Assembly: GCA_965227145.1 (NCBI GenBank)
Contig: OZ245730.1
Location: 2,243,661 to 2,307,660 of the forward strand
Direction: 5' to 3'
Source: Calditrichia bacterium
GTDB taxonomy: Bacteria > Calditrichota > Calditrichia > RBG-13-44-9 > J075
Length of the DNA: 64,000 bases
Shown here: positions 29,438 to 38,709 of the stretch, in pieces
Numbering within the stretch: position 1 is the stretch's first letter
How the letters are laid out: each line of letters opens with the position of its first letter
Notes under the pieces: model-generated
The model's input: only the letters and a program-made list of their open reading frames with translations
Databases searched by the model: none
What the model was told of the DNA's origin: nothing
Program-made: the position numbers and the translations under genes

Positions 29438-30511
29438 ATGAGAGCCAAATTTGCTGCATTTATTGCAATTCTATTTTGTTTTACTCCCATTACATATGTG
29501 TTTGCCCAAGGCGAAGCAACCGTGTTGTTCATGATGATCAATGCCGGCGCACGTCAGGGTGGAATGGGCGAAGCTGGTGTTGCTGACCCTAGCGATGCCA
29601 ACGCAATCTATTGGAATCCCGCCGGTTTAGCCTTCGAAGAAAACACCTTTGACCGCTCAACTCAGGGTGAAGCAACCCTGATGCACGTTAACTGGTTACC
29701 TGCATTCAACCTCAGCGATTTGTATTATGATTTTGCTGCCGGAAAATACAACCTTCCGGGTATTGGCACCGTTGGTTTGGGAATCCAGTTCATGAACTAC
29801 GGTGAAAACAACCAGACAGACGTGAACGGAAACCTGATCGGCACGTTTACCAGTAACGAGTTCGCTGTAACCGGCGCCTATGGATTGAAGGTAAAAGAAA
29901 ATCTCGGCATCGGTGTGAACCTGAAATTCATTTATTCCAGATTATCACCGGTTCAGGTCGATATCGAACAGGGTAAAGGCGTTGGTTCTACTTTTGCGTT
30001 GGATATCGGCGCGCTGTATCACCCCGGATTTATGAAACAATTGAGCATCGGTGCAAATCTCGCCAATTTTGGCCCCAAAATTACCTACATCGACAAAGAG
30101 CAGGCAGACCCGATTCCCACCAATTTGCGGGTCGGTATTGCTTACCGGGTGCTGGATTCCGAATTTAACAGGTTTACGGTGCTTTACGACATCAACCGCC
30201 TGATGGTGCCGCGTGATGAAGAGGATCGCAGAGCCAGTTTTGTGTCATATTTGGGAAGCGCCTGGGGTGGCGGCGATTTCTTTAACCGCCTGACGCATTC
30301 GATTGGTGTGGAATATTGGTACACCAATTTGATCGCATTGCGTACCGGTTTCTTTTACGAAGACCCGAGCTACGGCGCCCGTAAGTTTTACACATTCGGC
30401 GGCGGTGTCCGGATTTCATTTTTGGGTGTCGATTTTAGCTATATCCTTGGCACAGTTGAAGATAGCCCGCTTGCTGACACCATCAGATTTTCACTTTCAG
30501 CAATATTCTAA
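29438..30511 (+). CDS. PorV (LptO)-family outer-membrane beta-barrel protein.
   Basis: A signal peptide, then NAGARQGGMGEAGVADPSDANAIYWNPAGLAF, which resembles the PorV ARxGGMGDAG...NPA signature. Alternating-hydrophobic strands throughout. The C-terminus ends in an aromatic residue (RFSLSAIF). Confidence 0.6.
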   Translation: MRAKFAAFIAILFCFTPITYVFAQGEATVLFMMINAGARQGGMGEAGVADPSDANAIYWNPAGLAFEENTFDRSTQGEATLMHVNWLPAFNLSDLYYDFAAGKYNLPGIGTVGLGIQFMNYGENNQTDVNGNLIGTFTSNEFAVTGAYGLKVKENLGIGVNLKFIYSRLSPVQVDIEQGKGVGSTFALDIGALYHPGFMKQLSIGANLANFGPKITYIDKEQADPIPTNLRVGIAYRVLDSEFNRFTVLYDINRLMVPRDEEDRRASFVSYLGSAWGGGDFFNRLTHSIGVEYWYTNLIALRTGFFYEDPSYGARKFYTFGGGVRISFLGVDFSYILGTVEDSPLADTIRFSLSAIF

Positions 30512-30589
30512 ATTATTCGAAACTTGTTTTCGGCGCGATTTTAATTTCAAAAATTGCGCCGTTAAAAATTCAGAACATGGAACAGCGAT

Positions 30590-33500
30590 ATGTTGAAACG
30601 CGTTGTTTTGGGGGGATTGGTGTTTGTCTGCCTGTCGGCAATCGGCTTCTGGCCTGCAAAAGCACAGTCACTCCCGGACACTTTGAAAATTTTGGCCATT
30701 CGGGTTGAATTTCAGCCCGATAACGCCACTACCACCACCGGCGACGGAACCTTTGACCTGAGCAGTTCGACAACTGCTTTCCAGATTGATCCGCCGCCGC
30801 ATAATCGAAGCTATTTTCAGGATCATCTGACTTTCGCCAAAAATTATTTTGAAAAGGTGAGTCGCGGGGCGTTAATCGTTACCGGTGATGTTTTTCCTGC
30901 GGGAGAAACGGATGCGTATCGGCTCAGCGAGTCGATGTTAGCTTACAACCCCAACACATCGGCGCAAGCGGTGGATCAGGGAATTGCCCGGCTACTCCGC
31001 GATGCGATTCAATTGGCAGACGCGGATCCGCTGATCGATTTCTCAAAATACAATACATTTGTTGTATTTCATGCGGGTGTCGGTCGCGATATCGATTTGG
31101 GTTTGGATGACACACCTCAGGACATCCCTTCATTATATGTAACGTCCCAATTTCTGCAAAATAATTTGGGAATCAGCGAAATTGCTGTGGACGGCGGCGC
31201 TACATCCATCAAAAATGGAATTGTTTTGCCCGAAACCGAAAGCCAGGAAGGTATTCAGTTGGGGTTGAACGGCATTCTGGTATCCAATATCGGCTCTCAT
31301 TTGGGTTTTCCGGATCTGTTCAGTCCGTCTGAACGAGCGACAGGTGTCGGGCGTTTTGCGTTGATGGATGCGGGTTTGTTCAACGGTGACGGCTTATTGC
31401 CGGCGCTACCGATGGCCTGGACACGCATTTTTGCCGGATGGGAATCCGCAACGACAATATATCAGGCGCAAGGCGATGAACTGGCGTTGAATGCCGTTCT
31501 CTCGCCGCAATCGCCGCATGTTTTCAAATTCCCGATAAACGACAACGAGTATTTTCTGGTTGAAAACCGCTACTCGGGTGAGCTGCGGCTGGATAGTTTG
31601 CAACTGGTACTCACCGAAGGGCGAAATGAACTGGCGTCGATGCGAGAGGTGCTGGAAACATACCTTGCCGATCAGGTTACGTTTAGCCCGAGGGGCGTGT
31701 TGATCGATGCCAAAAACCCCGATATCGCGTTGCCGGGCGGCGGTGCGCTGATCTGGCATATCGATGAAACGGTGATCAATGCGCAAATTGCCCAAAACCG
31801 GATCAATGACGATCCTAACCATCGCGGTATCGATTTGGAGGAAGCAGACGGATCGCAGGATATCGGCGAAACGTTCGATTTTCTGAGCGGCATTCAAGAT
31901 GCCTCACTCGGCTGGGCGCTTGATCCGTGGTACACATCGAATTCCTCACCACTTTTTGAAAATAAATTTTCATCGGGCAGCACGCCGAATAGCCGCAGCT
32001 ATCTCAACAAAGCGAACAGCCATATCACGTTGTCGAATTTTTCCGCAAGTGATTCGGTTGTGACATTTCAGGCAACGCTGGATTTTTTCCAACCGAACTT
32101 TCCGAGAAAAGTTGACCCGGCAGTTTACGGGGTCGCAACCTCGTTAAAAGTGCTGGATGTGAATGCGGACGGTCGTTCGGAAATGATCCTTATAACGGAC
32201 GCAAATAAAATTTTGGTTATCGACGAAACCGGTGAATCGCAATGGGGAACCGATTCGCTGGAAGTGCTGCAAATTGATGAAAATTTTACACTTATCACAC
32301 CGCCGGCATTCACTATTTTTCCAAATGGTGATGTGCGAATTACAATCCTTACCCGCGAAGGGCAGGCGTTGAGCTATCTGTTTGACCGGGCACAAAACCG
32401 GTTGAACGGGCTGATTTCGGCAGATGATAACGGTAGCCGTTTTTCCACATTCCCGGTTGCGCCAAATGATGGCAGCGAAATTTATTGGGGTGGGGAAGAC
32501 GGCAGCATCTGGCAGTTCAACGTCGATGAAAACAACGTATCCTTTACTGAAATTGTAACCATTCCCGAACCGGTGAGATTTATTACTGTTGACGCAAGCG
32601 GTGAGTTGTTCGCAACCGGGACATCTGGAAATATTTACAATGGTTCCGCGCAGCGAGTTGCAGAAGCTGTTGGCCGTCGATCGCCGCTCGTCGGAAACGG
32701 GCTGGTTACTGTTGATGACGATGGCAGTGTGATTAGCGTTGCTGCTGGCGTAACCTCGCCGGAATCGATTATTTTGAATGTCCAAAGTGGATTAGCTGCG
32801 GTGACCATTCCTGCTACTTCGGGTCAGCCGGAGTCGGAATTTTTTGTTGCGGCCGGCGATAACCGCATCTCCATTTTCAATGAAAATTTGACGCTTCGGA
32901 CGGAATTCCCGAAAACGGTTTACACACCCGAAATCTCGACCGATCTATTTATCGCACCGCTGATTGGTGATTTAACCGATCCGTTGCTCCAAATTTCTAC
33001 AGCAAAAAGTTCGCAACAAACACCGGATATTTCCAGCATTGTGGCGGTTGATCCGTCGGGGTTAATTCTCGGATACGATTTTGATGGCAATACGTTGAGC
33101 GATTTCCCGCTTGCTGTTGGCGATTCAATTGTGGTAACGCCCGCGCTGCTGGATATCGACGGAGATGGAGATGTTGAACTCGCCAGTATCAGTAAATCCG
33201 GAACGATGTTTGTGTGGGATCTGAACGCCCAATTTGATGCGGCAAATCCGCAGCCGTGGGCGCAAGAGCACGCCACACCCGGAAATACCAATCGCGCCTC
33301 GGCAGTTGCCAAAACGACCCAACAATCGTTTTCCGGATTGATACCGGCTGACCGGGCATACAATTGGCCCAACCCTAATCGCGAAAATTACACATTTATT
33401 CGATACTATTTAACCGAAGCTGCCGATGTCAATATTCGCATTTTCGATTTGGCCGGCGATTTGGTAAAAGAGCTCAAAGGTACCGGTTTTGCTAATACGG

Positions 33501-37828: not shown

Positions 37829-38605
37829 ATGAGTAAAAAATCGAAATTCGTTTGTGCGCTAACACAGGTTCTTCTGGCGCTGATTACATTTTCCGCAACT
37901 GCGATAAACGCCCAAACCGGGTTGAAATCAACCGATTTCAGTAAATCGCTGCTGACACAAAATGCAACTTCTGCAGTAACATCCGCAAACAGCGATGGGA
38001 AAATGCCGGAAATTTTCAGCGAAAAACGCGGTGGCGCGCAGAATGTCTTTTACTCGCTGATTTTACCCGGCGCAGGCGAGTGGGCGATGGGTAACAAAGG
38101 CGCAGCAAAAGTATTTTTTGGATCGGAAATGGTGCTGTGGCTGGGATTTTGGGGCGCACAATCGTATGTCAATATTTTACAAAATGATATGGAATCATTT
38201 GCTGCGCTAAACGCCGGGGTTCGCACCGCAGGAAAAGATGATCAATTCTGGATCGATGTCGGCACCGCCGGTGATCTCGATGAATTTAATCACGAGCGAT
38301 TGCTCGAACGCGATATCGATGCCACTTATCCGGAAACTGCGGAATATCAGTGGCAATGGAACAGCGAAGACAATCGCCGCGAATATTTGCAAAAACGCTT
38401 CGACCGGCTGGACTGGAAACGCCGCACCAATTGGGTTGTTGGCGCGCTCATTCTCAATCGCCTCGTCAGCGCAATTGACGTAGTGCGATTGCTGCGCAAA
38501 CAAAATGATGAAACCCAAGCCCGGAAATCAATAATGTATGTCGACTACGCACAAAATAGCTTGCATGGCGAAACCTATCGGCTAAATTTAAGCATTAAAT
38601 TATAG
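37829..38605 (+). CDS. Secreted protein with an LPGAGE motif (DUF5683-like); paralog B.
   Basis: A signal peptide, then FYSLILPGAGEWA...KVFFGSEMVLW and the C-terminal ALILNRLVSAIDVV. It is collinear with the preceding gene's motifs. Confidence 0.45.
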   Translation: MSKKSKFVCALTQVLLALITFSATAINAQTGLKSTDFSKSLLTQNATSAVTSANSDGKMPEIFSEKRGGAQNVFYSLILPGAGEWAMGNKGAAKVFFGSEMVLWLGFWGAQSYVNILQNDMESFAALNAGVRTAGKDDQFWIDVGTAGDLDEFNHERLLERDIDATYPETAEYQWQWNSEDNRREYLQKRFDRLDWKRRTNWVVGALILNRLVSAIDVVRLLRKQNDETQARKSIMYVDYAQNSLHGETYRLNLSIKL

Positions 38606-38677
38606 TCATCCCGATATGGTTAGGGTTGCTCATGTACCGATGGTTTCCACATTTTTATCAGACATTTTTCACCATTC

Positions 38678-38709
38678 AGAGAGCTGCTGGTGTGCTCTTT
38701 CTTTTTATT
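38678..38709 (+). terminator. Terminator-like hairpin closing the five-gene outer-membrane operon.
   Basis: AGAGAGC-tgctggtgt-GCTCTTT (7 bp with one G.U pair) followed by CTTTTTATT. Confidence 0.45.

Follow-up and report, generated by a model that had tools for sequence, protein, structure and literature searches.

What is known about type IX secretion system (T9SS) biology comes almost wholly from Porphyromonas and Flavobacterium. The attachment complex of P. gingivalis is made up of PorU, PorV, PorQ and PorZ, in which PorU is retained by PorV and PorZ by PorQ (PMC11285876). PorU, PorZ and PorA are T9SS components that themselves bear the system's C-terminal sorting domain (CTD). Described separately is the 'WD40-like' class of Omp85 proteins, which gave fold matches to BamA/TamA, TolB and an aminopeptidase, with 100% Phyre confidence to BamA/TamA barrels (Heinz and Lithgow 2014, PMC4104836).

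We analysed 64,000 nucleotides (nt) of a Calditrichia bacterium genome (contig OZ245730.1, positions 2,243,661 to 2,307,660), referred to below as the window, and within it a cluster of five genes at 29438-38605 on the plus strand that brings a PorV barrel together with an Omp85-type protein. Our best reading takes this region for the form that Calditrichota have of an ancient operon, one belonging to the Fibrobacteres-Chlorobi-Bacteroidetes (FCB) group outside the class Bacteroidia, which in its fuller form runs porU, porV, M6i (a gene for an inactivated M6-like metalloprotease), a gene for a zincin/propeller/Omp85 protein and a DUF5683-like gene. Taken as a whole, the locus would be an extended T9SS attachment-complex operon whose mechanism we infer, and we regard that reading as evenly poised between right and wrong.

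Gene order and its conservation across phyla

The cluster opens with porV (g1, 29438..30511), encoding a 357-residue PorV-family outer-membrane barrel, followed by M6i (g2, 30590..33619), whose 1009-residue product is a T9SS type-A CTD protein with an M6-like domain and a dead active site. The third gene, g3 (33632..36823, 1063 residues from a TTG codon), encodes a zincin, a TolB-like beta-propeller and a predicted 16-strand Omp85-type barrel in one chain. The last two, g4 (36861..37781, 306 residues) and g5 (37829..38605, 258 residues), encode a helical DUF5683-like protein predicted to be exported and its paralogue. All five open reading frames (ORFs) lie on the plus strand with gaps of 78, 12, 37 and 47 nt, confirming the tight co-directional spacing reported in the first-pass annotation. 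The 12-nt gap between g2 and g3 is counted from the TTG at 33632; it widens to 30 nt with the ATG at 33650 (MKNNSIH...), which on reading the sequence is the likely start of g3. The same annotation had the cluster closed by a terminator-like hairpin; one is present at 38678..38709 on the plus strand (stem 38678-38700, then the U-run UUUCUUUUUAUU), but it is weak (-8.6 kcal/mol, z -0.70) and a terminator scan made no call. A sigma-70-type promoter scan and a search for TAnnTTTG were uninformative for the cluster.

All five products have predicted Sec signal peptides and are therefore taken as envelope proteins. Read from the sequence, each signal peptide ends directly before a glutamine (VFA/QG, AKA/QS, LQA/QD, GWG/QQ and INA/QT, with the cut at the slash). 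A glutamine directly after the signal peptide is known from exported Bacteroidota proteins as the 'Q-rule', and its presence after all five signal peptides at 29438-38605 carries the rule over into Calditrichota, for one genome. The closest protein matches come from Calditrichia metagenome-assembled genomes (MAGs), to which g3 is 98% and g2 94% identical.

To place the cluster among other lineages, we scanned one genome per GTDB species with an alignment of g3 as the query, which matched at least 590 species, and kept the best 80 loci. By submitter label, these comprise 28 loci from Calditrichota, 14 from Bacteroidota/Bacteroidetes MAGs, 12 from Ignavibacteria, five from Cytophagia/Chitinophagales, four from Chlorobi, three from KSB1, one from Neomarinimicrobiota and 13 that are other or unclassified. 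Among the 60 loci with enough flanking sequence, 57 carry porV, M6i, g3 and g4 in one order and on one strand, with g3 identity falling to about 35-40% in loci that conserve the order. The module is thus syntenic in relatives from several phyla, among them Calditrichota, KSB1, Ignavibacteria-type and Marinimicrobia-labelled genomes, as the gene-neighbourhood check proposed with the first-pass annotation asked of it. The flanks vary (BshB1 lies upstream in one locus, an RmlD-like gene downstream in 27), and since gene order is kept while the flanks vary, background synteny is not enough to account for the cluster's cohesion. When genes were called independently in L081, a complete Calditrichota genome, the five genes were again recovered.

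Two forms of the cluster emerged. The Ignavibacteria-type form, porU-porV-M6i-g3-g4, occurs in 24 loci, none of which has g5. The Calditrichota-type form, porV-M6i-g3-g4-g5, is found in Calditrichota, KSB1 and others; 34 such loci have at least 4.3 kb of upstream sequence and no adjacent PorU, and 28 of them have g5. Overall, g5 was detected in 35 of the 80 loci; it occurs in those of the Calditrichota/KSB1 type and was not detected in Ignavibacteria-type ones.

The profile scores of g1 bear out the earlier call of a PorV-family barrel. It scores 296.9 bits against NF033709 (PorV_fam, cutoff 90) and 83.5 bits against Pfam PorV PF19572 (cutoff 27), and reaches 238.5 bits against the PorV equivalog NF033710, a little under the cutoff of 250. 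It is nearer to PorV than to PorQ (96.7 bits), PorV2 (50.6 bits) or PorP/SprF (24.2 bits), and its sole sequence relative in the PDB is Flavobacterium johnsoniae PorV (6h3i_F, E 2.4e-34).

The window also encodes the T9SS sortase PorU (13559..17611, minus strand), which matches NF033707 at 770.6 bits (cutoff 420). As reported in the first-pass annotation, which put the distance at about 12 kb, it is separated from g1, with 11.8 kb between them, and lies upstream on the opposite strand. That annotation went on to propose that this PorV keeps company with the cluster genes instead of PorU, which the related loci contradict. Searching with the window PorU, we found a full-length homologue directly 5' of porV on the same strand in the 24 Ignavibacteria-type loci (about 30% identity over about 1350 residues), adjoining the same porV-M6i-Omp85-DUF5683 string. 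One of these, L038, was checked with NCBIfam: its PorU scores 918 bits (cutoff 420), its PorV orthologue 261.6 bits, above the equivalog cutoff of 250, and its M6i 831 bits (cutoff 600), followed by g3-type and g4-type genes. Because porU lies directly upstream of the orthologous porV in 24 loci, the window PorV is expected to be an ordinary PorU partner. We assign it, from sequence, as the orthologue of the canonical PorU-partner PorV, and the 11.8-kb separation as a rearrangement specific to the Calditrichota lineage. A dedicated PorV paralogue standing apart from the PorU partner was considered for g1 and ruled out, as its orthologues adjoin porU. The window PorU itself is 1350 residues long and its NF033707 match begins at residue 246, leaving about 245 extra N-terminal residues. 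The Ignavibacteria-type homologues align from about residue 5-40, so this N-terminal extension is conserved.

The pseudoenzyme, the Omp85-type fusion and the small paralogues

The first-pass annotation described g2 as an M6-like protein with a T9SS CTD and no HExxH motif, and every part of that description stands. The protein scores 624 bits (cutoff 600) over residues 25-1009 against NF052323, 'T9SS-dependent M6-like inactivated metalloprotease', with the TIGR03296 M6 domain on residues 77-328. Its N-terminus is hydrophobic, with the signal peptide noted above, and its type-A CTD lies at 33365..33598 (plus strand; residues 926-1003), scoring 35.1 bits against Pfam Por_Secre_tail (cutoff 27) and 35.4 bits against TIGR04183 (cutoff 23; residues 926-1004). 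A Caldithrix abyssi homologue is already named by NF052323 in RefSeq. M6 peptidases carry the zinc site HExxHxxGxxD. The corresponding position in g2 (31283..31321, plus strand; SNIGSHLGFPDLF) reads SNIGSHLGFPD, with both histidine ligands and the catalytic glutamate replaced, and no HExxH occurs elsewhere in the protein. HExxH is likewise absent throughout 62 of 63 long g2 orthologues. Homologues that have the G-x-P-D segment share the consensus [SAN][NS]xG[ST]xLGxPDL[FY], and this relic is conserved in g2 orthologues of all sampled phyla. Loss of the zinc ligands together with conservation of the relic therefore fits a pseudoenzyme under selection, and we classify g2, by its sequence features, as a T9SS type-A CTD cargo protein and a conserved pseudoenzyme. 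A sub-threshold FG-GAP_3 match on residues 855-887 marks a probable FG-GAP-like propeller region. Sequences in the PDB gave no match to g2.

We next considered g3, which the first-pass annotation presented as a fusion of a zincin, a TolB-like propeller and an Omp85 barrel. The AlphaFold2 (AF2) model is of good quality (pLDDT 87.2, pTM 0.85). Its helical gluzincin domain spans approximately residues 40-320 (33749..34591, plus strand) and matches Peptidase_MA_2 (PF13485) at 33.9 bits (cutoff 32.4). The domain contains HEYTH at residues 136-140 (34037-34051, plus strand) and, within an M1-like WxxEG motif, the glutamate ligand E196 (WYAEG, 34208-34234, plus strand). None of H136, E137, H140 and E196 varies among 59 homologues, HExxH was found in 80 of 80 orthologues, and we predict from these residues that the gluzincin is catalytically competent. 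The TolB-like propeller with PD40/TolB repeats follows at approximately residues 321-635 (34592..35536, plus strand), and some homologues of g3 match Tricorn_N and Tricorn_2nd. The zincin and the propeller are thus borne out.

The Omp85 part of the claim fails in a direct Pfam scan and holds indirectly. The C-terminus of g3 itself has no Pfam match even at E≤10, and the fold searches listed matches filled by propellers, with the barrel not reached, so that its 16 strands rest on the AF2 prediction. When 12 orthologous barrel segments were scanned, four matched PF01103 (best E 2.3e-9), the sole Pfam family matched by more than one of them. A profile of the barrel retrieved only six TamA sequences from the PDB (E 0.08-0.67), aligned on the FFAGG..RGY loop-6 motif. 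In the AF2 model, DSSP assigns 16 long strands over residues 679-1049 (35666..36778, plus strand), and the loop at residues 919-947 carries GGGLVGLKGY. This L6-like motif (FFGGGLVGLKGY, 36413-36448, plus strand) falls between predicted strands 11 and 12, and an L6-type GGxxxL[KR]GY motif is present in 71 of 79 g3 orthologues. NCBI labels some homologues 'BamA/TamA family outer membrane protein'. Through the orthologues, the motif, the AF2 model, these names and the 2014 class, the assignment of the barrel as Omp85-type holds indirectly.

Domain scans of g3 gave no POTRA match, and its N-terminal 635 residues fold in the model as zincin plus propeller. The missing POTRA domains rule out BamA or TamA proper, and membership in type Vd (PlpD-like) was likewise rejected, with neither a POTRA nor a patatin domain detected. 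Genes for BamD or TamB (DUF490) were not found at about 13.5-50 kb of the window or in L081; adjacency is not obligatory for these families.

The proposed profile searches thus hold for PorV, the M6-like domain, the CTD, the zincin and PD40, and are indirect for Omp85. For DUF5683 they are marginal in g4, which matches PF18935 at 27.6 bits (cutoff 26.7) over only profile positions 5-63 of 151, and empty in g5, which had no match in Pfam or NCBIfam, DUF5683 included. The two proteins nevertheless share the LPGAG and SAID motifs, and their paralogy was confirmed by comparing family profiles (hhalign probability 99.6%, E 2.5e-24). The hydrophobic helices of g4 are of moderate hydrophobicity and contain conserved polar residues.

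The C-termini of g4 and g5 proved distinctive. The AF2 model of g4 ends in a beta-hairpin at 37707-37772, terminating in GLAVEF. The last residue is F or W in 59 of 64 orthologues for g4 and in 31 of 34 for g5, about 91% together, against 17% ending in F, W or Y among all stop-to-stop ORFs of at least 200 residues in the same loci. The termini alternate hydrophobic residues (...MFGLAVEF, ...YGVYFSW, ...LNLSLRW). The C-terminal beta-signal of outer-membrane proteins (OMPs) is recognised by Omp85 proteins, and we assign the ends of g4 and g5, from these patterns, as OMP-type beta-signals, a feature new here. A lone hairpin cannot form a barrel; it is therefore proposed that g4 and g5 dock on the seam of the g3 barrel or are g3 clients, and the conserved ends suggest that they are docked on, or inserted by, this barrel.

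Candidate mechanism and alternative explanations

The extended attachment-complex reading can be stated as a series of steps. After export by the T9SS, g2 would be held on the cell surface through its CTD bound to PorV, where it would act as a non-catalytic binding or adaptor subunit at the PorU/PorV attachment step. The g3 protein would span the outer membrane by its barrel and present the zincin and propeller to the periplasm, and the terminal hairpins of g4 and g5 would dock on the seam of its barrel, or be inserted by it, like a beta-signal on BamA/TamA. The resulting g3-g4-g5 sub-complex may trim or quality-control polypeptides or outer-membrane components passing to the PorV/PorU station. 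In the lineage of the window, porU would have moved 11.8 kb away and g4 would have been duplicated into g5. A more specific version, which we put forward only tentatively, is that M6i, g3 and g4/g5 are T9SS or attachment components in non-Bacteroidia FCB phyla, replacing the PorQ/PorZ arm, with an Omp85 barrel, completed or capped by the hairpins of the two small helical subunits, coupling a periplasmic protease to PorU/PorV. If true, the T9SS would have its first assigned member of the Omp85 family, and g4 and g5 would be the first small non-barrel proteins with an OMP-type beta-signal for permanent docking on an Omp85 protein.

Several observations weigh against the extended attachment complex. 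The presumed link among the five products is drawn from synteny and family analogy, and the single-operon claim is based on gene spacing alone. The supposed orientation of the soluble domains of g3, periplasmic rather than surface-exposed, is taken from the default Omp85 topology. Window g5 ends in leucine (...YRLNLSIKL; 38581-38605, plus strand), where orthologues have, for example, ...RLNLSLRW. A g3 homologue occurs without porV, M6i or g4 in three loci (L045, L047 and L049). Finally, the WD40-like Omp85 list includes accessions that we take to be from Myxococcota (Anaeromyxobacter, Sorangium), Geobacter and Vibrio, all presumably T9SS-free, and the core function of g3 therefore need not be T9SS-specific. 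H1XQ58 in the same list is, we presume, a Caldithrix abyssi accession.

The isolated g3 homologues and the presumably T9SS-free lineages also speak for two sub-modules that share an operon and form no joint complex, an explanation that we find possible and somewhat doubtful. Here porV-M6i, with porU, would belong to the T9SS, and g3-g4-g5 would serve general outer-membrane biogenesis or quality control as a fusion resembling BamA/BamB/BepA, on which TamB-like partners dock by their beta-signals; the two would be transcribed together since each serves the outer membrane. The terminal beta-signals of g4 and g5 suggest a client or partner relation to an Omp85 protein that needs no T9SS, LptF and LptG genes stand convergent beside the cluster in 17 Ignavibacteria-type loci, and the WD40-like class has been likened to a BamA-BamB fusion (PMC4104836). 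Set against this is the porV-M6i-g3-g4 order, which 57 of 60 loci keep despite divergence at the level of phyla and changing flanks, much tighter than expected for functionally unrelated neighbours, and neither the window at about 13.5-50 kb nor L081 has a BamD, TamB or other BAM/TAM gene adjacent. The cluster could also be imagined as a surface protease machine, an idea near to that of the first-pass annotation, with g3 a type Vd (PlpD-like) autotransporter whose own barrel exports the zincin and propeller, and PorV-anchored g2 presenting or regulating the substrate, in T9SS cargo processing or in the harvest of extracellular protein. A dead and an active enzyme of the same clan are commonly paired in regulation, the g3 zincin is intact, and g2 with its CTD is predicted to be surface-exposed; PlpD, moreover, is a member of the Omp85 superfamily that brings an enzyme domain at its N-terminus to the surface (PMC4104836). 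We nonetheless consider this improbable. PlpD-type proteins have the POTRA domain that g3 lacks, a passenger of about 630 residues including a whole beta-propeller would be a large load for a 16-strand barrel to export, known TolB-like propellers are periplasmic, and the beta-signals of g4 and g5 are left unexplained.

A role in nutrient acquisition, in which T9SS-secreted proteases free peptides, g2 binds them at the surface, and g3 imports or trims them through its aminopeptidase-like zincin and a propeller filter, strikes us as very improbable. Omp85 barrels are not known to act as importers. The module occurs once per examined locus, among housekeeping genes by porU/porV and not in variable polymer-utilisation loci, and domain scans found no likeness to TonB-dependent or SusCD-type transporters in the cluster. 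What commends the idea are the fold matches that the g3 class gave in 2014, among them tricorn and the tricorn-interacting aminopeptidase F3 (PMC4104836), the M1-like WxxEG of the zincin, the Tricorn_N and Tricorn_2nd matches of homologues, and the further peptidases encoded in the window, an M1 family member and a trypsin-like protein.

Neighbouring genes and comparison with described systems

The surroundings of the cluster are housekeeping genes. Upstream lie an NQR operon and ApbE, with BshB1 immediately ahead, and on the 3' side the window continues with an RmlD-like reductase, ArgB and mevalonate-pathway genes. A hairpin with a U-run is found at 29371-29411 (plus strand), approximately 30 nt 5' of the porV start and 380 nt past the BshB1 stop, within a 445-nt AT-rich intergenic region; its folding energy is ordinary (z -0.6) and it has no Rfam match, nor was any Rfam RNA family found anywhere in the window. 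The RmlD-like sugar-nucleotide reductase gene (38794-39675, plus strand) also stands 3' of g5 in 27 related loci, and in L081 (14972-15862) it starts approximately 3 nt after g5. It may be part of the operon in relatives, and it is conceivable that the reductase is tied to a glycan used in cargo attachment.

Further 3', a 752-residue ORF (41080-43338, minus strand) encodes a class-II (NAD-type) 3-hydroxy-3-methylglutaryl-CoA reductase (residues 1-388) and, fused to it, a mevalonate kinase (residues 452-725). It is flanked by genes for an isopentenyl diphosphate isomerase and a phosphomevalonate-kinase-like protein (40483-41052 and 43413-44531, both minus strand), and together these genes are a mevalonate-pathway cluster found in Calditrichota. 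A 1375-residue ORF (45846-49973, plus strand) has a heparinase II/III-like domain (residues 491-670) as its sole recognisable domain and no NCBIfam match.

Other loci provided additional observations. The lipopolysaccharide-export permease genes lptG and lptF lie convergent and directly 3' of the g4-like gene in 17 Ignavibacteria-type loci, among them L038 (14217-16765, minus strand). A second g3-similar ORF is found 5-8 kb 3' of the cluster in L027 (21238-22992) and L065 (17679-20603), and the two may be paralogues. In L049 (3462-15610), and likewise in L045, the g3 homologue follows genes for Wzi-like, carbamoyltransferase, SxtJ-like, TatC, thioredoxin-like and ArsA/Get3-like ATPase proteins. 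A multihaem cytochrome gene adjoins the g3 homologue of L049 on the other strand, and its product has a weak, sub-threshold match to the T9SS sorting domain.

Among described systems, the T9SS attachment complex PorU-PorV-PorQ-PorZ of P. gingivalis, with the porU-porV pair of Bacteroidia, is the closest in its PorV barrel, which in sister lineages of the window is encoded directly after the PorU sortase. A further likeness is the CTD-bearing, non-cargo-like g2 encoded beside its likely anchor barrel, comparable to PorZ-PorQ and PorU-PorV. The cluster itself differs from that complex in having no PorQ or PorZ, whose place is taken by an M6 zincin with a dead site, a protease fused to an Omp85 barrel and the DUF5683-like proteins. 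M6i, g3 and the DUF5683-like proteins are not among the described T9SS components, and porU in the window is 11.8 kb off on the other strand. For g2, the nearest described family is NF052323, whose equivalog cutoff it exceeds and with which it shares the CTD and the lack of HExxH. The family name covers T9SS dependence and inactivation only, and no role or partner was found in searchable text.

For g3, the match is the WD40-like Omp85 class, in which a TolB-like propeller and an aminopeptidase-like fold lie N-terminal to a BamA/TamA-like 16-strand barrel without POTRA. The paper that defined this class is a sequence and fold classification only, in which gene neighbourhood, a T9SS link and function were not reported (PMC4104836), and our literature searches found no functional follow-up on these proteins since 2014. 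The module for translocation and assembly (TAM), as TamA-TamB, and the machinery for beta-barrel assembly (BAM), as BamA with BamB and BepA, provide functional analogies: an Omp85 barrel gene stands beside partners with beta-signal-like C-terminal strands, and a BamB-like propeller and a BepA-like zincin are tied to the g3 barrel. Unlike TAM and BAM, the cluster has no POTRA and no DUF490/TamB or BamD homologues, its propeller and protease are fused to the g3 barrel and are not separate subunits, and g4 and g5, which are small and helical, have no relative of solved structure. PlpD of type Vd resembles g3 in joining an Omp85 barrel to an N-terminal enzyme domain, but has POTRA and a patatin passenger, and g3 has neither.

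The first-pass annotation held that the cluster fits no described module. Its composition is indeed unlike any BAM, TAM or described T9SS sub-complex, but its parts were already catalogued, as NF052323 and as the WD40-like Omp85 class of 2014. In literature searches we found neither an account of the module as a unit nor a role for M6i or a function for DUF5683, and the current NCBIfam release has no specific model matched by g3, g4 or g5. The porU-porV-M6i-Omp85-DUF5683 string nominates three proteins for cargo processing or attachment in Ignavibacteria, Calditrichota, KSB1 and Marinimicrobia. Even if g3-g5 are a general outer-membrane device, the cluster would still reveal a new kind of Omp85 partner protein. 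It gives the WD40-like class its first genomic context, together with a partner hypothesis in the beta-signal hairpins of g4 and g5. Compared with what was already known, namely PorV, the M6i family, the WD40-like Omp85 proteins and DUF5683, what is new is the link of this Omp85 class to porU, porV, M6i and DUF5683-like genes.

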